A stretch of DNA of 64,000 nucleotides from Candidatus Kaiserbacteria bacterium. GTDB taxonomy: Bacteria > Patescibacteriota > Minisyncoccia > Phycocordibacterales > Phycocordibacteraceae. How positions within the stretch are numbered: position 1 is the first letter of the stretch; every line of letters starts with the position of its first letter. Positions 6,025 to 61,521 of this stretch are shown piece by piece. Location: the NCBI GenBank assembly GCA_963813065.1, contig CAWEXP010000008.1:73289-137288 (forward strand), read 5' to 3'. Under the pieces are notes generated by a model, which made no database searches, had not been told where the DNA came from, and worked only from the letters and a program-made list of their open reading frames with translations. Both the position numbers and the translations under genes were made by a program.

Positions 6025-6050
6025 CCGCGCCGAGGATATATACTATAGGC

Positions 6051-18348: not shown

Positions 18349-18360
18349 AAAAATGGGCTA

Positions 18361-21377: not shown

Positions 21378-23689
21378 CCAAGAAACGCCTCGTCCTCTTA
21401 GACGCCCACGCGATTATCCATCGCGCGTATCACGCCTTGCCAGACTTCACCGGCCCCACAGGCGAGCCGACGGGCGCGCTCTACGGCGTCGTCGCGATGT
21501 TGCTGAAGATTATCACCGAACTCAAGCCGGATTATATTGCCGCATGCTACGACTTGCCCGGCCCCACCGTGCGCCACGAGGCCTATGCCGAGTACAAGGG
21601 CACGCGTGCGAAAACGGATGATGCACTGGTCGCTCAGCTCAATAGTTCGCGCAAAGTCTTCGAGGCGTTTTCGATTCCGGCGTATGATCGTGCAGGATTC
21701 GAGGCTGACGACTTGCTCGGCACCATCGCGCATGAGATGGAATCAAAGAAAGATATTCAAGTCATCATCGCGTCGGGCGATATGGACACGCTCCAGCTCG
21801 TTGATGACAAGCGCGTGATGGTCTATACGCTGAAGAAGGGAATTAATGACACTATTTTATACGACGAAGCAAATGTGAAAGAACGGTTTGGATTCAAGCC
21901 CGCGCTCATTCCGGATTACAAAGGCCTTCGCGGTGATCCGTCCGACAACATCAAAGGCGTCCCCGGTATTGGCGACAAGACGGCGACCGAGCTCATTGTT
22001 AATTTTGGCACCATCGAACAGCTGTATAAAAAATTGAAGAAGAGCGAGACGGTGTTGGTAGAAAAAGGCGTCAAGAAACGCGTCATCGAACTCTTGAAAG
22101 CACACGAAGAAGACGCGCTCTTCTCGAAGAGTCTTGCGACGATTCGCACCGACGCGCCGATTGCCTTCGGATTACCGAAAGACTCATGGCGCGAGGGTGT
22201 TGATGAGAAAAAAATTCTCGCAATGTGCGACGAGTTCGGATTCCGGTCGCTCAAAACGCGTATTAAAATGACGCTCGGCGGGCAGAAGCAATTTGATGAA
22301 GCTTTGGATCCGCATAGGACGAACGGGGTTGGCGAGGGCGTTCCGCCAAAGCCTTCACAAATTCCTCCTACCCGCCTCGCGCAAGCACAAGTGATGCTTT
22401 GGCTCATCTCTTCTGAATTCACTGACGCAACACTCGACGACCTGCTTGCGTTTACCAAGAAAGAAAATTTCGACGCCGCATATGCCGAGCTCGAGAAACA
22501 GCTCGGCGAGCTGGGGCGCGTGCGCGACGTGTACGAGAACATCGAGAAGCCACTCATCCCGGTTATCCGCGGGATGGAGGAGCGCGGCATTCTCGTCGAC
22601 CCCGCCGTGCTCGCGGATCTCGCGAAGAAATATCGCGCCGAGCTTGAGTCAATCGAGAAGAAAATTTATAAAGCGGCGGGGCACGAGTTCAATATCGCCT
22701 CGCCCAAACAGCTCGCGGTGGTTCTCTTCGACGAGATGCACCTCGTGCCCGAGAAGCAGAAGAAGACGCCGGGTGGCGAACGCTCGACACGCGAGAGCGA
22801 GCTGGAAAAAATAAAAGAACTGCACCCCATCGTCGCGCAGATTCTCGATTATCGCGAATTGAAAAAGTTACTCTCGACCTACATCGATAACTTGCCGCCC
22901 TTACTCGACCTTGGGCACCGCCTCCACGCACGTTTCGTCCAGACGGGTACCACCACCGGCCGCATGAGTAGCCAGGACCCGAATCTGCAGAATATTCCAC
23001 TCCATTCCGAGCGCGGCAAGGCGATTCGTCACGCATTTGTTGCAACCGATGGTTTCGAGCTTGTCTCACTCGACTATTCGCAAATCGAATTGCGTATTGC
23101 CGCCATCCTCTCAGGCGACGAGAAACTCTGCGAGATATTCCGCCACGGGCGCGACGTGCACACCGAGGTCGCATCGATGGTCTTCGGCGTTGAGGCGGAG
23201 AAGGTGGATCAAGAAATGCGCCGCCGGGCCAAGGTGATCAACTTCGGCATTCTCTACGGCATGGGCGCCAATGCTCTGCGCGCTCAACTCGGCAGCTCGA
23301 CCGCCGAGGCACATCAGTTCCTCGAAGATTATTTCCACACCTTTAAAACGCTGGCCGAATATCTCGAGACAACGCGAGGGTTCGCGCGCAAGCACGGCTA
23401 CACCGAGACCCTCTTCGGTCGCCGCCGCCAATTCTCGGAGATGAAGTCGCCTCTGCCGTATGTCCGCGCGCAAGCCGAGCGCATGGCGATCAATGCACCA
23501 ATCCAGGGTACGCAGTCAGATATCATCAAGCTCGCAATGGTGCGCGCCGACGAGATGTTGAAAGAGAAAAAGCGTCTGATGACGCACATCTTTTGCTCCA
23601 AGTGCATGACGAACTGGTCTACGAGATACAAAAAGAGCGCGTCACCAATCTCTCGGCGCGTATCAAGAAAATTATGGAATCGGTGTTGA
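21374..23689 (+). CDS. polA: DNA polymerase I (5'-3' exonuclease + polymerase domains); 3' end frameshifted, continues to 23769 in the -1 frame
   Basis: GTG start at 21374 preceded by AGGAGG. Pol A motifs RRRAKVINFGILYGMG and QGTQSDIIKLAM. After ADEMLKEKK the frame is lost. The -1 frame reads HLLLQVHDELVYE...GPNWGNLKVV-stop (canonical motif C and C-terminus). Break at the A5 run 23567-23571. Confidence 0.85.
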   Translation: MTKKRLVLLDAHAIIHRAYHALPDFTGPTGEPTGALYGVVAMLLKIITELKPDYIAACYDLPGPTVRHEAYAEYKGTRAKTDDALVAQLNSSRKVFEAFSIPAYDRAGFEADDLLGTIAHEMESKKDIQVIIASGDMDTLQLVDDKRVMVYTLKKGINDTILYDEANVKERFGFKPALIPDYKGLRGDPSDNIKGVPGIGDKTATELIVNFGTIEQLYKKLKKSETVLVEKGVKKRVIELLKAHEEDALFSKSLATIRTDAPIAFGLPKDSWREGVDEKKILAMCDEFGFRSLKTRIKMTLGGQKQFDEALDPHRTNGVGEGVPPKPSQIPPTRLAQAQVMLWLISSEFTDATLDDLLAFTKKENFDAAYAELEKQLGELGRVRDVYENIEKPLIPVIRGMEERGILVDPAVLADLAKKYRAELESIEKKIYKAAGHEFNIASPKQLAVVLFDEMHLVPEKQKKTPGGERSTRESELEKIKELHPIVAQILDYRELKKLLSTYIDNLPPLLDLGHRLHARFVQTGTTTGRMSSQDPNLQNIPLHSERGKAIRHAFVATDGFELVSLDYSQIELRIAAILSGDEKLCEIFRHGRDVHTEVASMVFGVEAEKVDQEMRRRAKVINFGILYGMGANALRAQLGSSTAEAHQFLEDYFHTFKTLAEYLETTRGFARKHGYTETLFGRRRQFSEMKSPLPYVRAQAERMAINAPIQGTQSDIIKLAMVRADEMLKEKKRLMTHIFCSKCMTNWSTRYKKSASPISRRVSRKLWNRC

Positions 23690-23765
23690 CCAAAGAAGAG
23701 GCGCGCCATGTGCCCATCCTCGCCGCAGAAAAGATTGGTCCGAATTGGGGCAATCTGAAAGTCGT

Positions 23766-24374
23766 ATGATCTACCTTTTCCACGGTTCTGACGTCGAAAA
23801 AGTGCGGCGGCAGGCGTTCGCTTTTATCGAAGCGGCACGGAAGAAGCAGCCCGACCTCGCGTATGTGCGCCTCGCGCGCGAAGAAATGACTGCGGGCGCG
23901 CTCGAGGAAGTTGCGAGCGCTGGGGGGCTCTTCGTCAGCCGCTTGCTGGTGCTCCTTGATGACCCCTTCTCGGGCGACACCAATCTCGTCGAGGAATATA
24001 TCGAACCACTCGCGAAGTCCGACAATGCGATCATTGTTCTCGCGCCGAAATTGCCGCCTGCAAAAGCAAAAAAACTTTCCGCGAAGGCGGCGAAGTCGTA
24101 CGAGTTCAATGCCGCCGCGCGCGAGGACGCGCGCGGATTTAATTCCGCACTCGTCAACGCACTCGGCGCTCGCAATCCTCAGAAACTCTGGCTCGAAGTC
24201 GTCCGCGCGCTCTCGAAGGGTGATGCACCCGAACAAGTCCACGGCCTCTTGCACTGGAAGGCCCGCACCATGTCGCGCGAACTCTCCTTGTCGCTTATTG
24301 CGCTCCTTATGGATTCTCGCCGCGCTGGCATCGACCTCGCTGAATCGCTCGAGCGCTGGGCCCTTTCTATTTAA
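23766..24374 (+). CDS. holA: DNA polymerase III delta subunit-like (HolA-like, short)
   Basis: MIYLFHGSDVEKVRRQAFAFIEAA resembles the HolA N-terminus. Start overlaps the restored polA stop (ATGA). Ends 12 bp before repeat 1. Confidence 0.45.
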   Translation: MIYLFHGSDVEKVRRQAFAFIEAARKKQPDLAYVRLAREEMTAGALEEVASAGGLFVSRLLVLLDDPFSGDTNLVEEYIEPLAKSDNAIIVLAPKLPPAKAKKLSAKAAKSYEFNAAAREDARGFNSALVNALGARNPQKLWLEVVRALSKGDAPEQVHGLLHWKARTMSRELSLSLIALLMDSRRAGIDLAESLERWALSI

Positions 24375-24386: not shown

Positions 24387-24423
24387 GTTGCACAATATCC
24401 TTTTTCCGAAGGTGGTGTGCAGG
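24387..24423 (+). repeat. Array repeat R1
   Basis: Exact 37-mer, 12 bp after the holA-like stop. Confidence 0.9.
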
Positions 24424-25041
24424 TAACTCTCGCGCTGACGGGCGCGCGAATATCGGAAGTACTGGCGCTAACCGGCGAACGTAGTGCAGAAATGTCATGG
24501 AGATGCTCGGTCAGAAACTACGCTAATCTATACAAATTTAACAATTCACTTAGAACCTCATCACGTTGACTCCGTTGAGAACACCCACCGCCTTGGCAAA
24601 GTTAATTAGCATCTAGTCGTTTCGATCAACTGAGACATTACCGGATGGGCGTCGTAATGGATCGGCCAATGAGGCTGACGCTGAGCCCGGTCTAACTCGT
24701 ATCGGCCCCGTCAACAGGGGCAAGCATTGGTCCTTTCAGCGCGGCCCGCGAGACGGTCACAGTTTGGCGTGAGATGCCGGGAGCGGACCCGCCCCATCGG
24801 TTCAGACGTAACGAGCCTTCGAGTTGCATCGGTGAAGCTATCCACACGCGGGCCTGGGCCCAATGAATACCCAAAAGTCAGAGCGCTTGCTTAGTGCGCC
24901 TAGTCGATTACATAATGGTTACTGTGTGATATTATCCACATGCGCGTCTCTGAACTTTGTGGGGAGATCGGATGAGCGTATATGTTGCCCCCAGATTACT
25001 CAGCCTTCAAGGCAAACATGAACCGAGGCCATAAGTAGAGC

Positions 25042-26265
25042 ATGTCAAACGAAGAGCGCTTAGATCAAATCCTGTCGCGTGGCGTTATCAAACAGATACT
25101 GCCGAGCGAGCAAGAGTTCAAAGAACGTATGCTCAGCGGCGCACCGCTGCGGTTTTACATCGGTGCTGATCCAACTAGTAATGCTCTCCACCTCAGTCAC
25201 GCCAAGAACTATCAAGTCTTGGAAGAATTTCGCCTACTCGGCCATGAGGTAATTGTCTTGTTCGGCGATTTCACCGCGCGTATCGGCGATCCCACAGACA
25301 GGACCGCGGCTCGATCACGTCTCACCGGCGATGAGATACGGAAAAACGTTGAGGATTGGATGAGGCAAATCCGTCCATTAATGGACTTCAGTGCCAAAGA
25401 AAACCCTCCGCGAGTTCTCTTCAATTCTGAATGGCTATCTCCTCTGACTTTCGAAGAGGTTGTGAACTTGGCATCCAACATGACAGTGCAAAGGATGCTT
25501 GAGCGAGATATGTTCGAGCGGCGCATGGAAGAGCAGAGGCCTATCTTCCTACATGAGTTCCTATATCCTCTTATGCAAGGGTACGATAGCGTCGCTATGA
25601 ATGTGGACGTTGAATTATGTGGGACTGATCAGATATTTAACGCTCTCGTTGGCCGCTCCCTTCAAAAGACGTACAACAATAAAGACAAGTTTGTAGTGGC
25701 CGTGAATCTAATGGAAAATCCGGTGACTGGAGCTCTGATGTCAAAGAGCCGAGGTACTGGAGTGTTTCTGGATGCGGAACCGTTCGATATGTACGGATCC
25801 ATAATGGCGCAACCTGACGAAATGATAGAGATAATTCTCCTCAACAATACGCGTTTGCCTAAGGACGAAATCGTCCGAGTGTTGGCCCTCGGCCCACGCG
25901 ACGCAAAAATGAGAACGGCATTTCTCGTCACCACTTTGTTTCATGGTGAGGAAGCTGCTTTCGCGGCCGAACAGAGGTTCGTTGAGGTGATACAGAAGAA
26001 AATGGCCCCCACCAGTATTCCAACCATCGGTGTTAGTAGAGAGACACCAGCTGCGTTCGAGATTGTCAGGGCGTGCCTCGACGCCAACGTATCAAATAGC
26101 GAAATAGGTCGGCTGTTCAAACAGCGCGCAATCAGGATCGATGGTGATGTCGTAGATGACCGCGACAAGGTGATCAGGCTGTCGGCCGAGGGAACGAAGG
26201 TAAATGTCGGGAAACGAAAATGGTTCAACGTCGTCGCAGCGCGTTGCGCTGACGGAGCTAGCTAG
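25042..26265 (+). CDS. tyrS: Tyrosyl-tRNA synthetase (class I, with C-terminal S4 domain) carried in cassette 1
   Basis: HIGH-type motif (ADPTSNALHLSHA), KMSKS-type motif (LMSKSRGTGV), C-terminal S4-like RLFKQRAIRIDGDVV. 407 aa. Confidence 0.8.
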   Translation: MSNEERLDQILSRGVIKQILPSEQEFKERMLSGAPLRFYIGADPTSNALHLSHAKNYQVLEEFRLLGHEVIVLFGDFTARIGDPTDRTAARSRLTGDEIRKNVEDWMRQIRPLMDFSAKENPPRVLFNSEWLSPLTFEEVVNLASNMTVQRMLERDMFERRMEEQRPIFLHEFLYPLMQGYDSVAMNVDVELCGTDQIFNALVGRSLQKTYNNKDKFVVAVNLMENPVTGALMSKSRGTGVFLDAEPFDMYGSIMAQPDEMIEIILLNNTRLPKDEIVRVLALGPRDAKMRTAFLVTTLFHGEEAAFAAEQRFVEVIQKKMAPTSIPTIGVSRETPAAFEIVRACLDANVSNSEIGRLFKQRAIRIDGDVVDDRDKVIRLSAEGTKVNVGKRKWFNVVAARCADGAS

Positions 26266-26533
26266 CGATTTCTTGAACGAAATTCTGCTCAGAACATCGT
26301 GGTTTGCTGGTCTGAACGCTCCATTGCCACTTTGGGATGTCCTATTTATTGGCGGCTCCCTAAAGTACAACATTGCACGTCCTGACTCAGATGTTGATCT
26401 GTTTCTCGTTATGCCAAGGCATATCCAGTTAGAGCGTCAGATCAACCCCGTTTACGAATTTCGATTTCGTCACCACATACAAGTCGTTTGCGTATGCATT
26501 TCTGCTGACGAAAAACAGGTGTCACACGAATAA
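26204..26533 (+). CDS. Minimal nucleotidyltransferase-fold protein (MNT-like)
   Basis: GS-x9-DxD signature (FIGGSLKYNIARPDSDVDLFLV). Overlaps the tyrS 3' end by 62 nt, so the start is uncertain. Confidence 0.45.
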   Translation: MSGNENGSTSSQRVALTELASDFLNEILLRTSWFAGLNAPLPLWDVLFIGGSLKYNIARPDSDVDLFLVMPRHIQLERQINPVYEFRFRHHIQVVCVCISADEKQVSHE

Positions 26534-26747
26534 ATGGTTGTCGTACGATCTTTGCAGATTTTCTCCGACTGTCCACGTTCTTCTATCGCGCCTGACGCAA
26601 CGAAATGGGTTGTCCAGTGACTTTTTTATACAGATGAACCAGCTATGGGGGCAACTCTTGTCTGAAGTTGGACTTACGGCAACGAAAGGCATATCATGGT
26701 CTAATCAAAACCTAGACTTGTTGCTCTTTCAATAGAGGGGCACCGCG

Positions 26748-27635
26748 ATGAACGACCACTTCGTAGCATCGTATTTTGACTTTTCTGCATTGCCGATTGA
26801 CTTTGTTGGCAAGCAGACTTTGTGGGGGGTCTCGCCGGTCTCGCCACTTCACTTGGGCTATGATGCGTTGTTTGGCATGCAGTCGCAGTTGTGCGAATTG
26901 GGTGCAAAACCTCGGACGCTGCTAGCCGACGTCCACGCGATGATGTCTCACGGGTTATCCAAGAACGACGTGGTAGTCCGTGCCAGCTACTACGATCACG
27001 TTTTGAGGGACGTGTTTTCCATAGACACAGAAGTAATTCTCGGTTCAGGGTTTGAATACACGGAAGGCTACACAGCAATTTTGTACAAAACCATGCAACA
27101 CTTTACCGTTGGTCAGTCGAAACAGGCTGCTGGAGCGACAAAGAAGAACACCCGCGACACCATCGACCGTTACGTTTATCCGCTAATGCAGTGTGTGGAC
27201 GCAGCAATTCTCGGTCCAGACATCATTGTGGCCGAGAGAAGTCAGGAAAAAATCTATAGGCTGATGAGATCGATGGCTGATGAGCCGGTTTTTGACTCAA
27301 TTTGTGCGTGGTTGTCGTCAGTACACATTGTCTATGTGGAATCAACGCACGATTTGAACGGCGAAAGGATGCAGAACAGCTCGCGGCACACCCGGATAAG
27401 CTACCACGACGAAGCTGATGTAGTGGAGGCGAAAGTGAGGAAAATGTTTGCGCCACCAGAGGCGAAACAACAAGGTGAGAAAGGGAATCCACTCTTGGTT
27501 GCACAATATCCTTTTTCCGAAGGTGGTGTGCAGGTCTTGGTTGCGGCAACGAATGGACGCGAGCCTCAATGGAGAGATATTGAAGGCCGAAAAATGGCAC
27601 TCATGCCAGAACCGCAATCTGCAGTGAGAATTTGA
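26748..27635 (+). CDS. Class I aminoacyl-tRNA synthetase-like protein (TrpRS/TyrRS family), 3' end replaced by array repeat R2
   Basis: HIGH-like region GVSPVSPLHLGYDALFG and a catalytic-core-like middle. The last ~46 codons are encoded by the repeat plus flank. Likely a truncated paralogue. Confidence 0.5.
   Translation: MNDHFVASYFDFSALPIDFVGKQTLWGVSPVSPLHLGYDALFGMQSQLCELGAKPRTLLADVHAMMSHGLSKNDVVVRASYYDHVLRDVFSIDTEVILGSGFEYTEGYTAILYKTMQHFTVGQSKQAAGATKKNTRDTIDRYVYPLMQCVDAAILGPDIIVAERSQEKIYRLMRSMADEPVFDSICAWLSSVHIVYVESTHDLNGERMQNSSRHTRISYHDEADVVEAKVRKMFAPPEAKQQGEKGNPLLVAQYPFSEGGVQVLVAATNGREPQWRDIEGRKMALMPEPQSAVRI
27498..27534 (+). repeat. Array repeat R2
   Basis: Exact 37-mer. Lies inside the 3' end of the aaRS-like ORF 26748..27635 (encodes VAQYPFSEGGVQ). 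Confidence 0.9.
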
Positions 27636-27683
27636 TGGGGAAAAGCACTTCCGCCCTAAATTTCGAGACTTTATCCGGAGGAG

Positions 27684-28712
27684 ATGATGGAAAATCGTGA
27701 TTTGGCAAGCCAAGAATTATCTGGGCTATTGTTTTCGGAGTTCGACGCGAACAAACCCATAGAGTGGAAGAATGATAGAATGTCGGCGTTTCTATTGCGA
27801 GCAGCATTTAATATTGTTCGCTGTGACGAATACCTAAGTACCATTCCCCTCACTCGGGTTCGTCCGAGCATACATCGCGAACTTTATGGCGCTCTGCGAA
27901 ACTACGCGTTGAAAGGTGACTTGGGGTTTGAAGAACATGACGAATGGAAGTTTTGGTCCATAAGTTGCTTGATCAACGACGCCCAATATCGAATCGCGGC
28001 AACGTTCGATCGATGCATAGCCCACTGGATTATTAAGTTCTTCCGTGACGTGGAGCCGTCGCATCCTCAAAAAGAAAGGGCAGCGCCCATAGAAGATCTG
28101 CTCCACTCCTGGGAGTCGGTAAAATTGATGACGCTCAAAATCTCTTTGTCGAGCATGAAACAAGTGTGCGATGCGATGCCAGACGAGAGTGGTTCGACGC
28201 TTTCTGAGTCACTCCACAAAAGCATGTTATCAATCGAAAGAATCTCTTCTGCTTTGTGGTTATCTGGAACAGATACTGCAGCAGGTGCTATTCGACATGC
28301 TCAAAATGCATACTGCAGACGCATCAGAGAGGTGGCCACATCAGGTGATTGCCTTTCGGCATACAGGCTAATCGACCAATTGTCGGTATGCAGACAGGAT
28401 GCGAAAGGGAAGATTTATGAGCGAGCGAATAACATGAACGATGAGGAATGTCTTGCTATTGTTATTGGGCGGGTAAACGATTTCAAACATCGAGCAATCG
28501 GACCAAATATTGAAGAGGAGCTGAAAGAGGAGGCGAAGCCGTACCTGCGTCACATCGAGCTTGCCATTACAATTCAGGCATTGCGCATAGTGACGCGATT
28601 TTTCAAAGCTATGTCTGCGTGTATAGAAAAAGCCTCCGAACTGGGTTTGGAGGCTTCAAAGAACAATCAAGCGCGCACTGGAGAAGTTGTACCGTTCAGT
28701 AAAGCATTGTAG
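27684..28712 (+). CDS. Hypothetical protein (cassette 2)
   Basis: 342 aa, no recognisable motif, AT-rich codon usage unlike the flanking core genes. Confidence 0.4.
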   Translation: MMENRDLASQELSGLLFSEFDANKPIEWKNDRMSAFLLRAAFNIVRCDEYLSTIPLTRVRPSIHRELYGALRNYALKGDLGFEEHDEWKFWSISCLINDAQYRIAATFDRCIAHWIIKFFRDVEPSHPQKERAAPIEDLLHSWESVKLMTLKISLSSMKQVCDAMPDESGSTLSESLHKSMLSIERISSALWLSGTDTAAGAIRHAQNAYCRRIREVATSGDCLSAYRLIDQLSVCRQDAKGKIYERANNMNDEECLAIVIGRVNDFKHRAIGPNIEEELKEEAKPYLRHIELAITIQALRIVTRFFKAMSACIEKASELGLEASKNNQARTGEVVPFSKAL

Positions 28713-29074
28713 CGCTTAAGACATTGAGGCGCCCAATGTTCCTCAAACGCCTTCGCACTTTCCTTCCCGACTCCTACGTGAAATGTCAAAATGCTGACTG
28801 CCGGTATCGCCAATGCGCGGCCTCTCAGTGCAACCGCCTTCTTAAGCAACAAGAGCTCACCTTTGGACTTTGATGTGGTGTGCTCATTCTCCAATTCGTC
28901 ATCAATTGCATCCAGCGCGCGGTCCACTTCGTCGATTGTCAGAAGTATACCGGCCGATCCTACAAACACATTAAGCAACGATGGATGCGCAAGAGCTTTC
29001 AATATAGGATGGCGAACTTCCCATTCAAACTGATCGCTGTCGCAGCATGATACCCTTGCATCTAGTGTCGTCAT
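28667..29074 (-). CDS. Hypothetical protein (only minus-strand ORF in the array)
   Basis: 135 aa, overlaps the 3' end of 27684..28712. Weak call. Confidence 0.25.
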   Translation of the reverse strand: MTTLDARVSCCDSDQFEWEVRHPILKALAHPSLLNVFVGSAGILLTIDEVDRALDAIDDELENEHTTSKSKGELLLLKKAVALRGRALAIPAVSILTFHVGVGKESAKAFEEHWAPQCLKRYNALLNGTTSPVRA

Positions 29075-29309
29075 TGCACTCTCCTGATTAGGTCAACCGA
29101 GTTCCGACGATCCAGAACCCGGCATTCGCCAACCAAGAAGCCAAGTGCTTGCACCTGAGATGTGGAGTATACGAAGTAATCAATGTAAAGGCAACTTGCC
29201 ATAGTGCTCAGTATACAGACTTAACACTATGAGCAATATTGTTCAGTATTTACTAGCCGGTCAACTACTTTCTTCTTGCTTGCTTTGAGTATGCCGCCAA
29301 CCTTGATTT

Positions 29310-29891
29310 ATGTTGTTTGATCAAGCAGGTACGCGCAAATACCTCACTGCCGATGAACGACGCGCCTTCATTCGCGCGGCAAAGCGGTTCGTTCCTCCGG
29401 TCGAAACATTCTGTCTGACCCTAGCGCTCACGGGAGGGCGAATTTCGGAGATACTCGCGCTCACGCCCGACCGCATCGACCGAGCGAGCCACACGATCAT
29501 CATTGAGAGCCTCAAAAAGCGGCGTAGCGGTGTTTTTAGAGCCGTTCCTGTGCCGGACTACCTCATAGACAAGCTGACCGCCGTTCATGGCGTTTCTAGC
29601 GGTACAGGCGACACGTCGTTACGCAGCGAGCGACTCTGGCGGTGGAGCCGAACAACGGCGTGGCACTACATAAAGACGGTGATGGTCGCTGCTGGAATTC
29701 CCCGAAACGTGTCGAAGCCAAAGGCGCTGCGCCATGGCTTCGGCGTCGCCGGTACGCAGTCAGGCGTACCACTCAATATCATCCAGCGCTGGATGGGCCA
29801 CTCTCGTCTCGAAACCACGGCGATCTATACCAACGCTGTTGGTGATGAAGAGCGCGCCTTGGCCAAGCGGATGTGGAACGGGATGCCGTAA
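29310..29891 (+). CDS. Small tyrosine recombinase / phage-integrase-family catalytic domain
   Basis: Box I Arg (LALTGGRISEILAL). Motif RHGFGVAGTQSGVPLNIIQRWMGHSRLETTAIYT (H-x-x-R ... Y nucleophile). Only 193 aa. Confidence 0.8.
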   Translation: MLFDQAGTRKYLTADERRAFIRAAKRFVPPVETFCLTLALTGGRISEILALTPDRIDRASHTIIIESLKKRRSGVFRAVPVPDYLIDKLTAVHGVSSGTGDTSLRSERLWRWSRTTAWHYIKTVMVAAGIPRNVSKPKALRHGFGVAGTQSGVPLNIIQRWMGHSRLETTAIYTNAVGDEERALAKRMWNGMP

Positions 29892-29911
29892 AGAGTCACA
29901 TAGAGAACCGC

Positions 29912-29948
29912 GTTGCACAATATCCTTTTTCCGAAGGTGGTGTGCAGG
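29912..29948 (+). repeat. Array repeat R3
   Basis: Exact 37-mer, 20 bp after the tyrosine recombinase stop. Confidence 0.9.
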
Positions 29949-30303
29949 GTATCCACTGCGACCATTATTTGCAGTGAGATTCAATTTCCAAAGCTGAAGT
30001 AGTTGTCGGCGACCCAAACATTAATTCAGTATACTGATTAAACAGAATGAAGGCATTCTGTTCAGTGTCAGCAAACTACATCCGTCTCGAAGGCGGGGCT
30101 TTGCTCCCAAAGATAGATAGGAATCTGTAGGCCGGGCACCGCGACGATTAGGGGAAAGTGCGGAAACGCAGCCGTCTTGGGACCAGAAACGACCAAAACA
30201 GCTCAATAACCGCGCCAATCCCTGGGGACAAACATCGTGGATCGATGGCGAAGCCACGGACATTGTTGCAATATTGCTCGCGGCGAATCAGTTGTAAGCT
30301 ATA

Positions 30304-31080
30304 ATGATCCTTGCACCTATGACACCTATGCGGGATGAGTGCATCTACTCGAAGTATGCGCGGTATTTCGATTTGCTTTATCCGCATGACAAGTACGAAC
30401 GGCAAGCCAACATTCTTGACGCTGTGTTTGCTCGATACAGCAACCGGAAAATATCGCACATCCTCGACTTGGCATGTGGCACTGGTTCGCTTGCGAACCT
30501 ATTGGTCAAACGGGGTTATGCAGTAACGGGTCTCGAATTGAGCAAAGAGATGATTGCTATTGCGCAAAGCAAGGTTCCCGAGTTGCATGCCGTGCAGGGC
30601 CGCCTCGAAGAATTTCCAATACGTGGATCATATGATGCCATTACGTGCGTTTCAGCGCTGAACTACCTAGAATCAGCAGGCGCTCTGGAAGAATTGTTTG
30701 CGCACTGTAGCGAGTCACTAGTCGATGGTGGGTTATTGATTATACAGAATGCGCTAGTCCGCGGACGGTCTCACAAGTTTGGGCAGCTTCACGTCAATAC
30801 TTTTTCCAACGGTTCGATTTCTCTTGCTAAGTTCGGCACCTGGGACCTGGATGAGGCAACGAACGAGTGTCAAGCAAAGTTCTGTATCTTGCTCAAACAG
30901 CACGGTCACACCAAATTCGACATAGACCTACACCGTCTTCGTGTGTTCTCAACGGGAGAAATTACGTCTGCTTTACAGAAGAGCGGTTTGCAACCGTACG
31001 TGCTTGATGAAAAGACACTTGCACCATATTTGAAATCTACGGCGCCTGCGCTCTTCGTGGGGCGCAAAATTGTATCGTGA
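30304..31080 (+). CDS. Class I SAM-dependent methyltransferase (cassette 3)
   Basis: Motif I ILDLACGTGSLANLLVKRGYAVTGLELS. Confidence 0.8.
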   Translation: MILAPMTPMRDECIYSKYARYFDLLYPHDKYERQANILDAVFARYSNRKISHILDLACGTGSLANLLVKRGYAVTGLELSKEMIAIAQSKVPELHAVQGRLEEFPIRGSYDAITCVSALNYLESAGALEELFAHCSESLVDGGLLIIQNALVRGRSHKFGQLHVNTFSNGSISLAKFGTWDLDEATNECQAKFCILLKQHGHTKFDIDLHRLRVFSTGEITSALQKSGLQPYVLDEKTLAPYLKSTAPALFVGRKIVS

Positions 31081-31288
31081 TAGTCAATTCGCTTTATTTC
31101 GGAAATTGGTATTTTCCTCAGTATCAGAGCTTGGGCGAGCGCTGCACTTTCGTTATCTGCGCGATGTATGGCATTTAATAGATATTTGCGGCCTCGAAAA
31201 AAAATCGGGGTTCTGACTCCAAACCGATAACGCAATGAAGACAGTGCGCACAGATGTGGTGCGGTGTGGTCTCCACACACAGCACGAA

Positions 31289-31325
31289 GTTGCACAATGT
31301 CCTTTTTCCGAAGGTGGTGTGCAGG
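31289..31325 (+). repeat. Array repeat R4 (variant)
   Basis: 37-mer with a single A>G change (CAATGTCC). Confidence 0.9.
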
Positions 31326-31647
31326 TAGCAGATGTCGAATACTTCATGCAGTTGGCGGCGGCGAATGGTGGTCGATGAACAGTATAAGAGTGTTCCTTCT
31401 CCGGCCTCGGACACATCCGAGGCCAGTTCGTACTTGCTGCAAGTATCGTTCTTGGGTCCCTGCTGTATTCTGTCGGCCGCATTTTCGTATATGCCCACGA
31501 TACGCGGCAGAACGATTCGTGGTCCACAAGTGGCAATGCGTTCGAAGTTCCTATGCTACAATTCCGTCATGGCTCACCAATATATGTCGCAGCAAGCAAT
31601 CACCATCCCGTTCTCAAATCAAATGACACGCGGCAACCCAGATTTTT

Positions 31648-32547
31648 ATGGAGTGGTTGGCTAGTTTCAGCTCAACCGGACTGCACTTCCTCCTGGCACT
31701 GTTCGTGGGGGTTATTTCGTTGGTCCATCCAACCCCGTCGCTGGTTTGGCAGACCGTTACTGTATCTCAAGCGTCGACCACCGCACTATCATCTGCCGTG
31801 CAGACGCAAGCTACCCAGCCGTCTGCTATGCAGACACAATCTGTTCAATGGGTGCCAATCGCAGCGGCTTCAAGCACGAGCTACTCGCAAAGCGGTTCGA
31901 TGATCTATTACGAAGGTCAGCAAATCGTCACGGCAGACCCGACTACATTCCATGTTTCGTATGACCCTTTCAGTCCAAACTCATACGCAAAGGACAAGGA
32001 TCAGGTGTACTTCGGTCACGATGCAGGTGTCGATGTTCCCTCTGTCGCAGCCGGAGCCGATGTAATTGCGGGCGCGGACCCGTCGACATTCACGCCGATC
32101 TATGACGCGGCCGGATACTTTACTTTCTATGCAAAGGACAAGAATCGCGTGTTTTATGGTGGTGGGCGTCTTTTCCACACTGAAGCGCTCCCTGCCACTT
32201 TCGTCGTTCTACCAAGCGGCGAGCCACCCGATCCAAACGTTGCTTTTTCAAAGGATCAAAATCATGTCTACACATGGGCCGGGATAGTTGTCGATGCCGA
32301 TCCGGCGTCATTTGTAGTGATTGGAACTGTTCCCTACGCACCAGAGTTCGGCAATAGTGGCCCTGTCTATGCAAAGGACAAGAGCCATGTTTTTGTATCG
32401 GATGGACGAACGCTCGCGAGAGTTATCCCGGGTGCTGATCTATCGAGTTTTGTAATCAGCCCTTATTCAGCAACATCCACCTATGACGCGGAGGACAGCA
32501 ACCACTTCTATCTCGATGGCAGGGTCGTGGCGAATGGCGCCCTGTAA
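31648..32547 (+). CDS. Secreted DKNYY-repeat protein (cassette 4)
   Basis: Signal/TM N-terminus. Repeated YAKDK(D/N)xVYFG...GADPSTF units (PF13644-like). Paralogous to 44221..45832. Confidence 0.65.
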   Translation: MEWLASFSSTGLHFLLALFVGVISLVHPTPSLVWQTVTVSQASTTALSSAVQTQATQPSAMQTQSVQWVPIAAASSTSYSQSGSMIYYEGQQIVTADPTTFHVSYDPFSPNSYAKDKDQVYFGHDAGVDVPSVAAGADVIAGADPSTFTPIYDAAGYFTFYAKDKNRVFYGGGRLFHTEALPATFVVLPSGEPPDPNVAFSKDQNHVYTWAGIVVDADPASFVVIGTVPYAPEFGNSGPVYAKDKSHVFVSDGRTLARVIPGADLSSFVISPYSATSTYDAEDSNHFYLDGRVVANGAL

Positions 32548-32576
32548 CGAGAAGTCGCGATCAACCCACGTGTCAA

Positions 32577-33176
32577 TTGACCTTTCGTTGTAACCCTAAA
32601 CTACGATTGCACGAAGGTCGCTCGTCATCCCGAAATGCTGACTTCAAAAAAGTCGGTTGCATAAAAGCCTTGAACGTCATTTGGTGCGAGGGAATTGTTA
32701 GGGCGTTGCACAATATCCTTTTTCCGAAGGTGGTGTGCAGGTTCGCTGGATCTCTAAATAGCGCTGGGCAACAGGTCGAGTCATTCATTGGTATTGTTGA
32801 AAATGGTTTTTTCGACTGGCTTAGCACATACGGCCAATCAGTTGGTGGCGGAGCGTTTGGGCAGGCCGCCGGGATTACAAATACGGCAATAGAGACAGCA
32901 AAGGTCGTAGCCGAAATTCTAGATGACGCCATAAAGTCAAAACCGGCGACTCGGCAATATCTCGATTACGAACTCCAATCATTCTGCAACGGCTCGACTT
33001 GTAGCGCGTCCCAGCTGGCCCAAGCTGCCAACGACCTCAATCAATACTCCGACGCAAAGGTTGGATTGAATCTCGTAAAACAAGGATTTGCATTGCCTAG
33101 CATGACCGAAGTCGAGTTCCTTCAGAATGCGCTAACGCAATACGCTCTTGAAAAGGGCTACAAGGTGGTAAACTGA
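32577..33176 (+). CDS. Hypothetical protein (cassette 5); true start probably downstream of repeat R5
   Basis: The track ORF reads through repeat R5 (LHNILFPKVVCR is an artefact). Downstream part is Gly/Ala-rich. Confidence 0.3.
   Translation: MTFRCNPKLRLHEGRSSSRNADFKKVGCIKALNVIWCEGIVRALHNILFPKVVCRFAGSLNSAGQQVESFIGIVENGFFDWLSTYGQSVGGGAFGQAAGITNTAIETAKVVAEILDDAIKSKPATRQYLDYELQSFCNGSTCSASQLAQAANDLNQYSDAKVGLNLVKQGFALPSMTEVEFLQNALTQYALEKGYKVVN
32705..32741 (+). repeat. Array repeat R5
   Basis: Exact 37-mer. Confidence 0.9.
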
Positions 33177-33244
33177 GTGGGCATTCACTGGGGAAGTTCT
33201 CAACCCGTGAGGCGACTTGCGCTACGTAATATCAACATCATTTT

Positions 33245-33895
33245 ATGTTTCTCATTCCGAAAGTCACATTTTATTCGTCCGCGGCATGTCTCGGCCTACT
33301 GGCGATAAGCATTGCGGTTTTTGCAATTCGCAGCGACCAACGACTACATACGCTTCCATCGGATCAGGATAGATTTGTAGCTGATTGCCTAGGGGCCAAT
33401 AGTCTCGTCACCGCATCAGATACGACCTTGTGGGCAACGTATCAAACAGCCGATGTTGTTGGAATTCCAGCGTTAAACTTCAAATATCCTAAGGGTTTCG
33501 GAATTCCGCAGTCCAAGGTGGCGGATGGTACTGAGGAAATTCTGTTTTATGACTCGATGGGAGCAATAGGTTCCCCCCTGCCATTTTGCTCCGCACTTGT
33601 CGTTGTTCCCATCAGGCTAAAACCGGATCAATCACTAGATTCGCTCGTTGCGGAACAAGCTCTCCCTATCGAAAAATTTAAAGTCACCAATCAGTTCGTC
33701 ATTAATGATTATCGCGTGGTAAGCCAAGCAGCAGCCCCTAATGCGTCAACAATTGACTACTACGTCCAGATGAATGGCGACCAAGTTTTGGACTTTGTCT
33801 TTTCGCGTTCAGGTCCCGACGGCAACTTAAATCAAATGTCAGAATACGCTGCGCTCAGCAAGCAAATCATGTACACGGTGCAGTTCACGCCTTAG
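33245..33895 (+). CDS. Membrane-anchored/secreted hypothetical protein (cassette 5)
   Basis: N-terminal TM MFLIPKVTFYSSAACLGLLAISIAVFAI. Confidence 0.45.
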   Translation: MFLIPKVTFYSSAACLGLLAISIAVFAIRSDQRLHTLPSDQDRFVADCLGANSLVTASDTTLWATYQTADVVGIPALNFKYPKGFGIPQSKVADGTEEILFYDSMGAIGSPLPFCSALVVVPIRLKPDQSLDSLVAEQALPIEKFKVTNQFVINDYRVVSQAAAPNASTIDYYVQMNGDQVLDFVFSRSGPDGNLNQMSEYAALSKQIMYTVQFTP

Positions 33896-34073
33896 CGTGC
33901 GGCTTCCCTGCCTAATCAGTCAGTGACTTCTGCTCAAGCATGTGACAAAGCGGCCTCGGTAACACCGAGGCCGCGGAAAAAACAGGGTTACAATCCTTAT
34001 TGACCAGCTTTCGCCGCCGAAAGCTGCATGAGGTATTCGACAGCCTCTTGCGCCTTGCTCGCGGCGGTGAAGA

Positions 34074-34110
34074 GTTGCACAATATCCTTTTTCCGAAGGT
34101 GGTGTGCAGG
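34074..34110 (+). repeat. Array repeat R6
   Basis: Exact 37-mer, 32 bp from the cas2 stop (34143). Confidence 0.9.
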
Positions 34111-34142
34111 GACAGGTGAATACTGGCTGGAATCGCGGATTT

Positions 34143-34439
34143 CTAGACAATTTCAAAAGACTTAGCATTATATTGCTCCTCAATAGTGGCGCTGGCAGTC
34201 GAGTTCGTCGCGCATGATTTGCAGGAGGCGAGTAGGTGCAGACGGTCTCGCTTTCCTGATAGCAATGATAACATTCGCGCCTCGAACTCCCGACGTTCTT
34301 TAAAGGAAAGGCGTCCGACGTAGAGTGTTGGTTGCAGCTTGGACAGAGCATAATTTTTGGAGAACTGCTCTGCCTGAGCCTGCCGCTTTTTGTTAGCGGT
34401 TCGCCACGCGGCGATAGTGAGGAAGCCTGGATCACTCAT
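34143..34439 (-). CDS. cas2: CRISPR-associated endoribonuclease Cas2 (divergent)
   Basis: 98 aa. 4-nt ATGA overlap with the cas1 stop. Beta1-basic stretch-beta pattern (FLTIAAW...KKRQAQ...LQPTLYVGRLS...RDRLHLL) matches the Cas2 fold order. Sequence is divergent, so identity rests mainly on size and coupling to cas1. Confidence 0.55.
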   Translation of the reverse strand: MSDPGFLTIAAWRTANKKRQAQAEQFSKNYALSKLQPTLYVGRLSFKERREFEARMLSLLSGKRDRLHLLASCKSCATNSTASATIEEQYNAKSFEIV

Positions 34440-35488
34440 GGTGCGTACTCGAAGGGTATATACATCGTCTCTTTCTCCATAAATATCCGCGCGAGGAGCT
34501 CGCTCTGCTCGGTAATCGCGGCTTTGAGCGTGCGGCGCTTGCCGCGATGGGGCACCTTGAGCTCAAGGTGCTTGAGTACCGCCTCGACCACTTTGCTTTT
34601 ACCTTGCGCCGAGAGCCGATATTCGTTTTTGCTGACCTGCTCAAAGTCGCCACGCTTGCCGAGCTCTTTGGAGATGAAAAGAGGAATGACGGCGGCATCG
34701 ACGGCTGGCACGCGAAACTCCTCGATGAGGTCCAAGACGAGCGCTGGCTTGCCATATCGTTCGGAGTGGTAGAGACCGAGGTATGGGTCGAGGCCGATAT
34801 AGAGGCAGGCGCGCTCAATCTCATTGTAGAGGATACCGTAGCCATAGTTGAGCGCGCTATTGAACTTGTCACGGCCCTGCGGGATGCGACCGGGGAACTT
34901 GAAGAGTAATCTCATGCTTTGCCAATAGCGTTCGGCGATAGAGCCCTCGAAGCCGAGCAGCTCCTCATTTGCGCGATTGCTCGGGAGCAATTTTGCGATT
35001 GACTCAAACATCGTCTCTGCCTGCATGCGTTCCTTGGCATTTTCCGCTCCGTACCGGTCGGTGAGGTGACGCATAAAGCGGATTTGGTTGCGGCACTTGC
35101 CGATGACAAACGTGCGCGCGAGTTCAAACGATTTGGTCGGGTCGGAGGAAACTGCCAGCTGTGCGCGGCGTAGCGTCGCGAGCCCCTTCGGGTCGCTGGA
35201 GAATATGCGCCCGACCGGCTTGCCGAACGCACCGAGATAAACGATGTCCACCTCATGTGCTAACGCGAGCTGTACCGCATGCATGGAGATAGAGGATGGG
35301 CGCAGTATGACAATTTTACTCAACCTACGAATTGGGTATTCTTTCTTCACGCGCGGCGGCTTCGGGAGCCCTATTGCTCGGCGTTTCCGGCCCCTCGGCA
35401 ATGGCGGTTTGGGCCCGGGGAGGGAGATGGTAATCCGCTCGCCCGTCGCGCCGATAAATGTGCCGTAGGTGTCTATCAGCAAATCCAT
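34436..35488 (-). CDS. cas1: CRISPR-associated endonuclease Cas1
   Basis: Hallmarks ERYWQSMRLLF, NSALNYGYGILYNE and GLDPYLGLYH...ALVLDLIEEFRVPAVD (compare S. pyogenes NAGLDYGYTLL / GLKH...DIMEPFRPLVD). Unusual Lys/Arg/Pro-rich insert near the N-terminus. Confidence 0.9.
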   Translation of the reverse strand: MDLLIDTYGTFIGATGERITISLPGPKPPLPRGRKRRAIGLPKPPRVKKEYPIRRLSKIVILRPSSISMHAVQLALAHEVDIVYLGAFGKPVGRIFSSDPKGLATLRRAQLAVSSDPTKSFELARTFVIGKCRNQIRFMRHLTDRYGAENAKERMQAETMFESIAKLLPSNRANEELLGFEGSIAERYWQSMRLLFKFPGRIPQGRDKFNSALNYGYGILYNEIERACLYIGLDPYLGLYHSERYGKPALVLDLIEEFRVPAVDAAVIPLFISKELGKRGDFEQVSKNEYRLSAQGKSKVVEAVLKHLELKVPHRGKRRTLKAAITEQSELLARIFMEKETMYIPFEYAP

Positions 35489-35630
35489 TGGCGAAAAAAT
35501 ACCACCGCACTTGACCGATAGTCAAGAGACTTGCTTTGTCCTCCGCGGGGGGGGGGTTCGAACCCGCGTATGCTATCATATAAAGGTAGTCGTCAAACTT
35601 GACTACAAGTGGTAGTGTTCGGCGAGACAT

Positions 35631-35702
35631 GCGCCCGTAGCTCAGCGGTAGAGCAAGAAGCTTTTAACTTCGAGGTCGGTGGTTCGATCCCACCCGGGCG
35701 CA
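35631..35702 (+). tRNA. tRNA-Lys (anticodon TTT)
   Basis: Acceptor GCGCCCG/CGGGCGC, D-arm GCTCAGCGGTAGAGC, anticodon loop CTTTTAA, T-arm GGTGGTTCGATCCCACC. No encoded CCA. Confidence 0.85.
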
Positions 35703-35703
35703 C

Positions 35704-36534
35704 ATGACTGTTTCTTTTCGAGAGCGGTGTCGAGCTCTGCGCCAGCAAGGCAAGAGGATCATTGAGATTGTGAAGATAACTGACCGGGCCAAATCTTCTG
35801 TCTATACGCACATACGAGACATGCCCCTTAGTGCGGACCGGATGCGGGCAGTGCGCGTTGCATCGGGGCGGCATATTCGGCTCTATGCGCTCGCGAGAAA
35901 GGGAAAGAGTGCGCGAAAGTTTAGGACATTCAAAAAATGGACGCCCGAGCTGGTGCTCCTCGTTGCCCACTTATTGTTTGACGGCGAAATATATCGCGGC
36001 GGAATCTACAACAACCGAAACACCGCGCTTATTGAACGCGTTGAGCAATACATGCGAATACTGTACGACTATGAACCGAAACGGTATACGAATCCCCTGA
36101 CGGGTGTGCATCGGATTAGTTATCATAATGTAGAATTCGGCGCGTTTCTAAAAGCAAAATCTCGAGAGTTACTTACGAAAGTAAAACGAATGCCGCCCGA
36201 GCTAAAACGAGAATTTTTGCGAGCATTTTTCGACGACGAGGGATGCATGGACTATCGGCCCAATGAAAATCGGAGAATGGTACGCGGGTACCAAAAAGAT
36301 GTCAGAATTCTCAAGCTCGTAAAAACGCTCCTGCAAGATTTCAGAATCTCCGCTCGTATAGTGAGACCGAACGAGGTGGTGATTGTGGGAAAAGAGAATC
36401 TAAAACGATTTCAATGCGAGATCAACTTCTCTCGCGGCATTTTTATGAACGGCGATCGCCCAAATAGTCGCTGGAAAAAACATATGGAAAAACGCGAGCT
36501 GTTGCGGCTCGCCATTGCGTCATTTAAAAATTAG
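35704..36534 (+). CDS. Double-motif LAGLIDADG homing endonuclease with N-terminal HTH
   Basis: Motifs LVAHLLFDGEI and LRAFFDDEGCM. ATG starts 2 nt after the tRNA-Lys discriminator base. Confidence 0.7.
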   Translation: MTVSFRERCRALRQQGKRIIEIVKITDRAKSSVYTHIRDMPLSADRMRAVRVASGRHIRLYALARKGKSARKFRTFKKWTPELVLLVAHLLFDGEIYRGGIYNNRNTALIERVEQYMRILYDYEPKRYTNPLTGVHRISYHNVEFGAFLKAKSRELLTKVKRMPPELKREFLRAFFDDEGCMDYRPNENRRMVRGYQKDVRILKLVKTLLQDFRISARIVRPNEVVIVGKENLKRFQCEINFSRGIFMNGDRPNSRWKKHMEKRELLRLAIASFKN

Positions 36535-61516: not shown

Positions 61517-61521
61517 TTACC

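Follow-up and report, generated by a model that had tools for sequence, protein, structure and literature searches.

CRISPR adaptation modules pair the integrase Cas1 with Cas2 and keep spacers of ~30-45 bp between direct repeats beside a leader, and the known cases of off-target Cas1-Cas2 integration and of mini-arrays have spacers of normal length as well. Casposons link a Cas1-family integrase to kilobase-scale insertion, and integrons line up kilobase-sized units next to an integrase gene. Here we describe a locus that shares features with each of these. It lies in a 64,000-nucleotide stretch, hereafter the window, of a Candidatus Kaiserbacteria bacterium (assembly GCA_963813065.1, contig CAWEXP010000008.1, positions 73,289 to 137,288), where six 37-bp repeats set kilobases apart abut cas1 and cas2 and the DNA between them carries genes. 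The layout of Cas1-Cas2 arrays with kilobase spacers is real and conserved across a clade of Cas1 proteins, and we consider it probable that an effector-less Cas1-Cas2 integrates long double-stranded DNA (dsDNA) at the leader-proximal repeat, duplicating the repeat as it does so.

CRISPR finders, CRISPRCasFinder included, assume short spacers, which would explain why kilobase-spacer arrays have escaped detection. A sequence-only reading of the window, which preceded this analysis, knew of no described system of this shape, and we likewise found no description of kilobase-spacer Cas1-Cas2 arrays in the full-text literature, a source that leaves subscription journals mostly uncovered. We found no such system in the 2025 CRISPR-Cas classification "including rare variants" (PMC12669027), for which arrays were detected with CRISPRCasFinder.

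Repeats, Leader, and cas Genes

A scan of the 64 kb found the 37-mer GTTGCACAATATCCTTTTTCCGAAGGTGGTGTGCAGG six times, always on the plus strand, with starts at 24387, 27498, 29912, 31289, 32705, and 34074, and nowhere else, the chance expectation being 0. The gaps between the copies measure 3074, 2377, 1340, 1379, and 1332 bp. When 100 nt on either side of each repeat were aligned, conservation was confined to 37 nt and the flanks were unrelated, so the repeat unit is exactly 37 nt. The features of the locus are the following, the repeats being listed on the strand of the cas genes.

24387-24423, minus strand: R1, the most distal repeat, 12 nt past the holA stop
27498-27534, minus strand: R2, a repeat inside an apparent open reading frame (ORF) at 26748-27635
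29912-29948, minus strand: R3, a repeat found by the 37-mer scan
31289-31325, minus strand: R4, the sole repeat of the window with a substitution, A>G at 31299
32705-32741, minus strand: R5, a repeat found by the 37-mer scan
34074-34110, minus strand: R6, the leader-proximal repeat, reading CCTGCACACCACCTTCGGAAAAAGGATATTGTGCAAC on the cas strand; its junction is also present in contig L001
34111-34142, minus strand: leader of 32 nt from the cas2 stop to the first repeat, by direct reading
34143-34439, minus strand: divergent cas2 of 98 aa that shares 4 nt with cas1, with profile and fold support
34436-35488, minus strand: cas1, 350 aa, apparently catalytically intact (PF01867 9e-64, TIGR00287 1e-65)
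35496-35525, minus strand: promoter-like site 5' of cas1, TTGACT-18-TATTTT with TG, a consensus match only

The sequence-only reading had reported much of this, and its count of six 37-bp repeats, their positions on one strand at kilobase spacing, and the single A>G change in R4 were all reproduced. Its distances hold too: 32 bp separate the end of R6 at 34110 from the stop of the 98-aa ORF at 34143, and the 98-aa and 350-aa ORFs overlap by 4 nt. The identification of the longer ORF as Cas1 is borne out by the profile matches listed above. Its residues E181, H241, D253, and E256, which we take to lie in the conserved Cas1 active-site motifs, are invariant in an alignment of 38 clade members, and among the NCBIfam models it matches those of CRISPR subtypes (I-D, I-C, Cas1g) with scores below their cut-offs.

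The 98-aa ORF on its own gave no above-threshold match in Pfam or NCBIfam-type profile searches. A profile of its family, compared with the PDB, had Cas2 proteins as all of its best six matches, in register (best E 0.005), and PF09827 was matched below threshold by 17 of the 22 family members. The AlphaFold2 (AF2) single-sequence model (pLDDT 61) has a beta-alpha-beta-beta-alpha-beta topology, and the 17 best Foldseek matches of this model in the PDB are all Cas2. By family profile and predicted fold, which agree, the protein is thus a divergent Cas2, in line with what its size had suggested to the sequence-only reading. The usual Asp of Cas2 strand beta1 is replaced (W-R/E/Q-T), and the divergent cas2 is encoded after cas1 in every related locus of the clade described below.

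Across the family the leader is ~30 nt long, and in most loci it ends with GGCT directly 5' of the repeat (...GGCT/CCTGCA, the slash marking the junction), the window having TGTC. This junction is conserved at the cas-proximal repeat only, and arbitrary sequence stands 5' of the internal repeats. The view of the sequence-only reading that the 37-mers are CRISPR-type repeats attached to genuine cas1-cas2 genes is upheld. Scans of the region for promoters and terminators gave counts at chance level.

The locus is effector-less and without Cas3, 7, 8, 9, 10, 12, or 13. In PADLOC and Pfam searches of 70 window ORFs, Cas1 was the sole cas family among the 25 commonest families listed; the large window ORFs, annotated singly, were type IV secretion system (T4SS) components, DnaA, DnaN, a serine recombinase, and DKNYY and cohesin/dockerin proteins; and the neighbors of the module in the related loci L002 and L003 are housekeeping genes.

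The kilobase-spacer layout is neither an artefact nor a one-off. Logan contigs of ERR11630400, an independent assembly of the same strain, match two window junctions at 100% identity: L001 reproduces the junction from R6 through the leader and cas2 to cas1, and L088 covers 32713-34073, a stretch that starts within R5 and runs up to the final base of the first spacer (c1). The same layout occurs in many independent assemblies, including L016, an 876-kb record named "chromosome: 1" with eight repeats. Past c1, at window positions 34070-34077, L088 reads TCGC and not the repeat start GTTG, its deviating end being ...GGTGAAGATCGC; the difference may stem from a tip of the assembly, from a variant array, or from the donor or unintegrated context of the newest cassette in the same sample.

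Conservation of the Layout across a Cas1 Clade

We gathered 61 genome loci with the Cas1 profile, together with the contexts of close relatives, and scanned them with exact k-mers and with a profile of the repeat family. The window Cas1 belongs to a large family in Patescibacteria (Paceibacterota/Parcubacteria and relatives), the best 120 clusters all being at least 51% identical to it. The clade considered here comprises 41 loci with 39-100% Cas1 identity, whose members are Patescibacteria, 'candidate division FCPU426', a few other labelled bacteria, and two DPANN archaeal contigs. In 37 of the 41 loci a related 37-nt repeat stands ~30 nt past the cas2 stop, always co-oriented with cas1, and the consensus of the family on the cas strand is CCTGCAnAnnnnnGTCGCAAAAAGGATATTGTGCAAC.

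At least two repeats are present in 19 of the loci, and these arrays hold 49 spacers of 140-4243 bp with a median of 1473. None of the 49 is shorter than 100 bp; ordinary short spacers next to the repeat, which the sequence-only reading had proposed to look for, are absent from these 19 arrays. Ordinary arrays with a period of 65-80 bp are found at the outgroup Cas1 loci, which are 25-33% identical and come from Chloroflexota, cyanobacteria, spirochaetes, and others.

Within a locus the repeat copies are identical, the substitution in R4 of the window being the only one, and between loci they diverge, mostly at positions 7-13 and in step with the divergence of Cas1. Identity within loci and difference between them argue that the repeat is copied from its neighbor and not brought in by each cassette. 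The hairpin of the repeat has no covariation support across the family: sequence is what is conserved in the outer TGCA...TGCA stem, and base pairing in the inner one is seen in only 49% of the cells. The inner part of the palindrome pointed out by the sequence-only reading is therefore specific to the window variant, and a site of protein recognition fits the conserved outer sequence better than an RNA fold does.

The copies of the window repeat are confined to the island within the 64 kb, and in the related loci the repeats are co-oriented and downstream of cas2, unlike a dispersed miniature inverted-repeat transposable element (MITE) or repetitive extragenic palindrome (REP). It is common in the clade for a lone leader-repeat unit to occur with no spacer, as in L003, L008, L012, and L030. 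A few single repeats without cas linkage occur on short metagenome contigs. On the metagenome contigs L067, L077, L079, and L084, the repeat is preceded by only the last ~26 codons of cas2, and L079 and L084 carry, on the side of the cas2 remnant, a degenerate repeat copy 3-4 kb from the intact one; these four appear to be decayed remnants of the system.

At the far end of the clade, L038 (Aenigmatarchaeota) and L040 (an uncultured archaeon) encode Cas1 proteins 39% identical to that of the window and the same divergent Cas2, which indicates that the system spans the boundary between bacteria and archaea among ultra-small symbionts. L038 has two repeats 1582 bp apart, the first ~30 nt past cas2. 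A degenerate-repeat scan of the JGI metagenomes returned 19 loci, none with the exact repeat of the window and none a strain variant of its array. In viral contigs the exact 37-mer had 0 matches, and the Cas1 clade had no relatives on the viral contigs of IMG/VR.

Nature of the Spacers

In the clade arrays, the ORFs that abut repeats are truncated relative to their Pfam models exactly at the repeat. A protein kinase retains model positions 157-259 of 263 only, an NDK positions 57-134 of 135 (the entire cassette being 386 bp), a FAD_binding_3 protein positions 1-220 of 349, and a patatin positions 2-118 of 191; a 673-bp cassette is an internal piece of a TPR ORF with neither start nor stop, and an NHL propeller is cut at its end. 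The cassette ends have no conserved motif, no signal resembling a protospacer-adjacent motif, and no terminal inverted repeat (TIR). Genes point both ways relative to the repeat, one strand encoding 13767 aa and the other 10033 aa.

Among the 74 cassette ORFs of the 19 arrays, 70 Pfam families occur, none more than two times; dnaX, a MazF toxin, and an IS200 transposase are part of this cargo, as are metabolic enzymes and membrane proteins. No recombinase recurs among the ORFs, one integrase and one IS200 transposase being found. GC content is below that of the host flank in 37 of 40 cassettes, the mean difference being 5.5 points, and an all-against-all comparison found no cassette common to two loci. 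The spacers are thus arbitrary pieces of mostly foreign, lower-GC DNA.

In the window, numbering the spacers from the leader outward, the array holds the following.

32742-34073, unstranded: spacer c1, 1332 bp, GC 0.49, with a complete 216-aa ORFan and a 144-codon open frame
33245-33895, plus strand: the 216-aa ORFan of c1, with a signal-peptide-like N-terminus
32742-33176, plus strand: the 144-codon open frame of c1, which begins at the R5 boundary
31326-32704, unstranded: spacer c2, 1379 bp, GC 0.52, holding a DKNYY-family protein
31648-32547, plus strand: the DKNYY-family protein of c2, 299 aa (PF13644 7e-21)
29949-31288, unstranded: spacer c3, 1340 bp, GC 0.49, holding a methyltransferase
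30304-31080, plus strand: the S-adenosylmethionine (SAM)-dependent methyltransferase of c3, 258 aa (PF13649 8e-17)
27535-29911, unstranded: spacer c4, 2377 bp, GC 0.50, with a 342-aa hypothetical protein and a tyrosine recombinase
27684-28712, plus strand: the 342-aa hypothetical protein of c4, an ORF
29310-29891, plus strand: the 193-aa tyrosine recombinase of c4, catalytic domain only and of FimB/XerA-like size (PF00589 7e-20)
24424-27497, unstranded: spacer c5, 3074 bp, GC 0.50, the most distal, a fragment of a cluster of tyrosyl-tRNA synthetase (TyrRS), middle gene, and TyrRS-like gene
25042-26265, plus strand: the intact TyrRS of c5, by comparison with the cluster in L086
26204-26735, within c5: the degraded middle gene, a remnant of a longer gene
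26748-27497, within c5: the TyrRS-like gene, cut at residue 250 (NF006330 model positions 38-261 of 342)

The most distal spacer is collinear with positions 8165-10904 of L086, a 92-kb contig on which the three-gene cluster stands in an ordinary chromosomal context, the TyrRS proteins being 74% identical and the TyrRS-like proteins 57% identical over residues 4-250 versus 11-256 of 336. The homology of the latter stops exactly at R2, whereas the gene of L086 extends for 80 further codons; beyond R2 the gene is not continued, and its ORF merely appears to read through the repeat. The repeats have thus not simply been dropped into pre-existing DNA. Another ORF (32577-33176) runs through R5. The sequence-only reading had counted the second aminoacyl-tRNA synthetase (aaRS)-like gene among the intact-looking ones and had seen a minimal nucleotidyltransferase before it; R2 cuts off the former at residue ~250 of ~336, and the latter is, by comparison with L086, the degraded remnant of the longer middle gene. 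Its description as a gene-cassette array is half right: complete genes are present in some spacers, yet what the units amount to is arbitrary pieces of DNA and not tidy cassettes.

The TyrRS of c5 is of Patescibacteria type, with nearest relatives 81, 80, and 72% identical; the 81% relative lies on a contig of GC 0.50, equal to that of the cassette, the host GC being 0.56-0.58. The 216-aa protein of c1 has no homolog among 5.8e9 proteins, and an exact-protein look-up has P0006, P0121, the methyltransferase, and the 342-aa protein not on record. Between the window cassettes and the other 53 kb of the window no similarity was seen, and hence no self-derived fragments were found there. With blastn, the island had no match among phages and a single marginal integrase match among plasmids, and in PHROGs only the integrase and the methyltransferase of the cassettes were matched. 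The c4 recombinase, the only tyrosine recombinase in the array, scores far below the integron-integrase cut-offs, and its residues 8-176 align to positions 9-179 of 200 in the NF007370 invertase model. The genes of the window cassettes are uniformly oriented relative to the repeat. Most of these cassettes hold whole genes set in non-coding sequence, and genes captured whole (in the window TyrRS, the methyltransferase, the DKNYY protein, and the small recombinase) may be expressed.

Further similarities were noted around these spacers. Some 95 nt of c2 next to R4 (31326-31420) are 78% identical, in inverted orientation, to 33955-34046 in c1 next to R6, such that c1-R5-c2 looks as if bounded by inverted repeats; the donors may have been related, or the two ends of one element may have been captured in opposite orientations. 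A 25-nt direct repeat (29208-29232 and 30026-30050, 80% identical, palindromic core CAGTATACTG) brackets the gene of the 193-aa tyrosine recombinase plus R3, and the two copies could be sites of the c4 recombinase or a chance match. The cluster of TyrRS, a ~259-aa protein, and an archaeal-type TyrRS-like protein of 336 aa is found in the window (25042-27497), in L086 (8001-11147), and in L087, and a contig of GC 0.64 with this cluster carries genes not typical of the candidate phyla radiation (CPR), among them Crp, PilZ, TetR, and aldehyde dehydrogenase. This distribution suggests a horizontally mobile module of aaRS paralogues.

The Island and the Module as Insertions

The array and cas genes form an island of ~11.1 kb between two host genes.

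23745-24374, plus strand: holA (TIGR01128), the left host flank of the island
35631-35703, plus strand: tRNA-Lys(UUU), the right host flank, its promoter-region sequence conserved with L003
18349-18673, unstranded: the empty counterpart, between ruvB and the type II secretion system (T2SS) ATPase gene, of the L003 module site; the element there ends ...GGAATATGAACGGGAT

Synteny links the window to L003, which encodes a Cas1 84% identical to that of the window. There, ~95 nt separate holA from tRNA-Lys, and a LAGLIDADG gene comes next; since this site is empty and the promoter region of the tRNA gene is conserved, the stretch from R1 through R6 to cas2 and cas1 (~11.1 kb) is an insertion. The comparison of the holA to tRNA-Lys interval with a relative, which the sequence-only reading had called for, thus shows the whole island to be absent there. 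The idea that repeats were inserted into existing DNA was rejected on these grounds: cut genes are not resumed past the repeat, and the island is missing altogether from the syntenic site of L003.

In its turn, L003 has a module of its own between ruvB and the T2SS ATPase gene (cas1-cas2, the leader, and one repeat); it begins directly after a conserved non-coding element, of which the final 18 bp occur a second time 3' of the repeat. At the empty site of the window these 18 bp are a single copy; no flanking duplication is found at the module copies in L030 and L033. The metagenome-assembled genome (MAG) MFD05512.bin.1.167 has four module copies (~1.5 kb) that are 99.7-100% identical from a hairpin ~100 nt upstream of cas1 to the final base of the repeat. 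The reciprocal empty sites of the window and L003, and the four near-identical copies in one MAG, show that the module itself, a cas1-cas2-leader-repeat unit of ~1.45 kb, is mobile between genomic sites and genomes. Its GC is often lower than that of the host.

One of the copies in this MAG consists of a 5'-truncated cas1-cas2-leader that lies between two repeats and ends at the leader/repeat junction. This spacer-like copy would be a captured piece of DNA whose end was made at the cleavage site of Cas1 itself. On one contig of this MAG, CAVYRH010000003.1 (L033/L035), a full module is followed by ~12 kb, a repeat, a 5'-truncated cas1-cas2-leader, and five more cassettes. The near-identical modules are those of L033/L035, L019, and L024, and in L024 a repeat also stands 8.3 kb upstream of cas1.

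The non-coding element used in L003 (window 18349-18600, L003 9760-9986) is apparently structured, with long internal complementarity and a TTGACA-type promoter-like sequence 5' of it, and Rfam returned no match for it even at E<=1, its only finds in the window and in L003 being tRNAs. The element may be an unannotated small RNA gene that serves as an integration target. Next to the island, a gene resembling LAGLIDADG homing endonucleases (35704-36534) begins 1 nt past tRNA-Lys, as it does in L003, and the spacer between holA and tRNA-Lys holds tRNA-like TpsiC remnants and a G10 run at 35540-35630, which suggest an integration hotspot.

Proposed Mechanism and Alternatives

We propose that the system, made up of a Cas1 that looks active, a divergent Cas2, the ~30-nt leader, and the 37-bp repeat, derives from a CRISPR adaptation module. 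Instead of measuring prespacers of ~35 bp, it would insert long dsDNA fragments at the leader-proximal repeat, the observed fragment sizes being 0.14-4.2 kb and possibly reaching 12 kb. Cas1 would attack in its standard staggered manner (transesterification), each event duplicating the 37-bp repeat, and successive insertions, polarised at the leader end, would build an array of giant spacers. On this view the smallest spacers, of ~140 bp, would be as short as DNA can be for both its ends to loop onto one 37-bp repeat, ~140 bp being about one DNA persistence length. In biological terms the locus would act as a homology-independent site of DNA or gene capture in genome-reduced symbionts, or else the spacers would be by-products of a selfish mobile module. 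The local identity of the repeats, the leader junction, the cuts in the middle of domains, and the clade-wide layout favour capture of kilobase DNA by Cas1-Cas2 with repeat duplication, the first of the three candidates that the sequence-only reading had listed. We give even credence to the broader proposition that a Cas1-Cas2 lineage has lost both its ruler and interference and writes arbitrary kilobase-scale DNA, functional genes included, into a defined site.

Several points weigh against this proposal. Canonical Cas1-Cas2 is a strict molecular ruler, and a Cas2-containing complex would somehow have to accept kilobase-long DNA; that Cas1-Cas2 is the agent of the insertions is something we infer from the sequences. 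Gene conversion could maintain the identity of the repeats. No high-identity donor was found for any cassette, the best matches being 81% for protein and 76% for DNA, and for c1, which we call the newest cassette, no donor was found at all, its gene being an ORFan. Most cassette boundaries in the window are intergenic and most genes there complete, unlike random fragmentation, such that some selection or end preference must be assumed. No pair of arrays in close relatives was found with common cassettes that would reveal leader-end polarity. The whole-window summaries cover the 25 commonest families, and the absence of effectors therefore leans also on the annotation of single ORFs and on the neighbors in L002 and L003.

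With the same integration chemistry and a different biology, the module could be a selfish, minimal casposon-like element and the kilobase spacers incidental by-products of a sloppy integrase, which we think unlikely. The sharp-ended, near-identical copies in one MAG, the different sites in close relatives, the often low GC, the 18-bp direct duplication in L003, which is like a target-site duplication, the decayed remnants with the last 26 cas2 codons and a repeat, and the many spacers that are gene stumps are what one would see with such an element; yet the module has neither TIRs nor a family-B polymerase, other copies examined are without flanking duplication, and in profile searches its Cas1 falls with CRISPR Cas1 models and not with a casposase-specific signal. 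The invariant active-site columns of 38 Cas1 proteins indicate an integrase that is apparently maintained, which fits a host-level role and does not prove one. The same invariance speaks against the repeats being the sites of a recombinase other than Cas1, integron-like or acting by homology, which would swap cassettes as units with cas1-cas2 as relic or passenger. Such a view draws on the small tyrosine recombinase in one window cassette, on the 25-nt direct repeats with palindromic core that bracket its gene and R3, and on the complete genes in most window cassettes, but it leaves a good deal unexplained: no recombinase recurs among the 74 cassette ORFs of 19 arrays, the repeats within an array are identical, unlike attC, and without structural covariation, orientation is mixed and genes are truncated at the repeats, no cassette is common to two arrays, and the first repeat stands ~30 nt from cas2 in 37 of the 41 loci. 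We regard it as quite improbable, and the second candidate of the sequence-only reading is not supported.

Its third candidate, insertions of mobile genetic elements (MGEs) into a former array, is not supported either; it is close to the view that these are decaying ordinary CRISPR arrays that lost their effectors and had their short spacers replaced or swollen by MGEs and illegitimate recombination. That no effector genes are present, that some loci are plainly degenerate remnants, and that cassettes include an IS200-type transposase and an integrase agrees with decay, but only one of each turns up among the 74 cassette ORFs, and the cassettes have no TIRs, end motifs, or other MGE ends. Not one short spacer is left among the 49 of 19 arrays, the copies of the repeat agree perfectly within an array, intact and conserved Cas1 and Cas2 are encoded, and the layout is kept over 39-100% Cas1 identity in bacteria and archaea, all of which makes decay very unlikely. 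Assembly chimerism, with contigs mis-threaded through the 37-bp repeat, is extremely unlikely: short-read assemblies do break at repeats, and L001 and L088 end inside them, but the same architecture is found across many independent assemblies and projects and two junctions are matched at 100% by Logan contigs. At most the order of the window's five cassettes would be wrong, and as each segment is bounded by repeats on both sides, the junctions of repeat and fragment are real whatever that order.

Other Accessory Genes of the Window

Outside the island, the window has further accessory genes. A TraG/VirB4-like ATPase and a T4SS pilin-domain protein are encoded at 3663-8572, upstream of dnaA/dnaN (11056-13612), and a second, much stronger DKNYY protein, a large serine recombinase, and Ig-like/dockerin and cohesin-domain proteins are found at 44224-45402, 51358-52698, and 60119-63887. 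Several of these genes lie in stretches of lower GC.

Implications and Comparison with Known Systems

If the proposal is true, a CRISPR integrase works without a molecular ruler and moves gene-sized DNA, which would revise the textbook view that it writes memories of ~35 bp only. The system would also be an extant one between casposons and CRISPR arrays, making the hypothesis of a casposon origin directly testable, and would give ultra-small CPR and DPANN symbionts a new way, independent of homology, to acquire genes horizontally. A dedicated locus for gene or DNA capture would bear on how these genome-reduced organisms acquire genes. An integrase of two proteins (350 and 98 aa) that places kilobase DNA at a 37-bp site with no need for homology would be of interest for DNA recording and the integration of large payloads.

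Among known systems, the locus shares most with CRISPR adaptation modules, of a class 1-like kind: the Cas1 active site is conserved, Cas2 is present, and cas1-cas2 is followed by a short leader and 37-nt direct repeats that are identical within arrays, diverge together with Cas1, and have a conserved junction with the leader. The repeat ends with ...ATTGTGCAAC, which we take to resemble the ATTGAAAC-type ends common in type I/III repeats. It differs in its spacers of 140-4243 bp as against ~30-45 bp and thus in having no length ruler, in the whole genes that these spacers contain, in lacking effector, Cas4, and Cas6 genes, in the mobility and multiple copies of the module, in its highly divergent Cas2, and in a repeat structure without covariation support. 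Solitary leader-repeat units, and integration seemingly possible outside a canonical array, recall off-target Cas1-Cas2 integration and mini-arrays, whose known cases have spacers of normal length; here there are none at all.

The linkage of a Cas1-family integrase to kilobase-scale insertion, the mobility of the element, and the duplication of a target, here the 37-bp repeat, are shared with casposons; the 18 bp duplicated around the L003 module may be a target-site duplication as well, the copies in L030 and L033 having none. Unlike these, however, the locus has no TIRs at the ends of cassettes or module, and the island encodes no family-B DNA polymerase, the only polymerase being the host PolA (21266-23689). 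Its inserted DNA is arbitrary and foreign and not the element itself, Cas2 is present, Cas1 matches CRISPR-type models, and serial insertions at one fixed site build an array. Integrons resemble it in their ordered, kilobase-sized units beside an integrase gene, some with single complete genes, and in their potential for gene capture. None of the parts that define integrons is present in this locus, however: the adjacent integrase is Cas1-Cas2 and not IntI, identical 37-bp repeats take the place of variable attC hairpins as boundaries, genes lie in both orientations, truncation affects many units, and each array has cassettes of its own, with none common to arrays.

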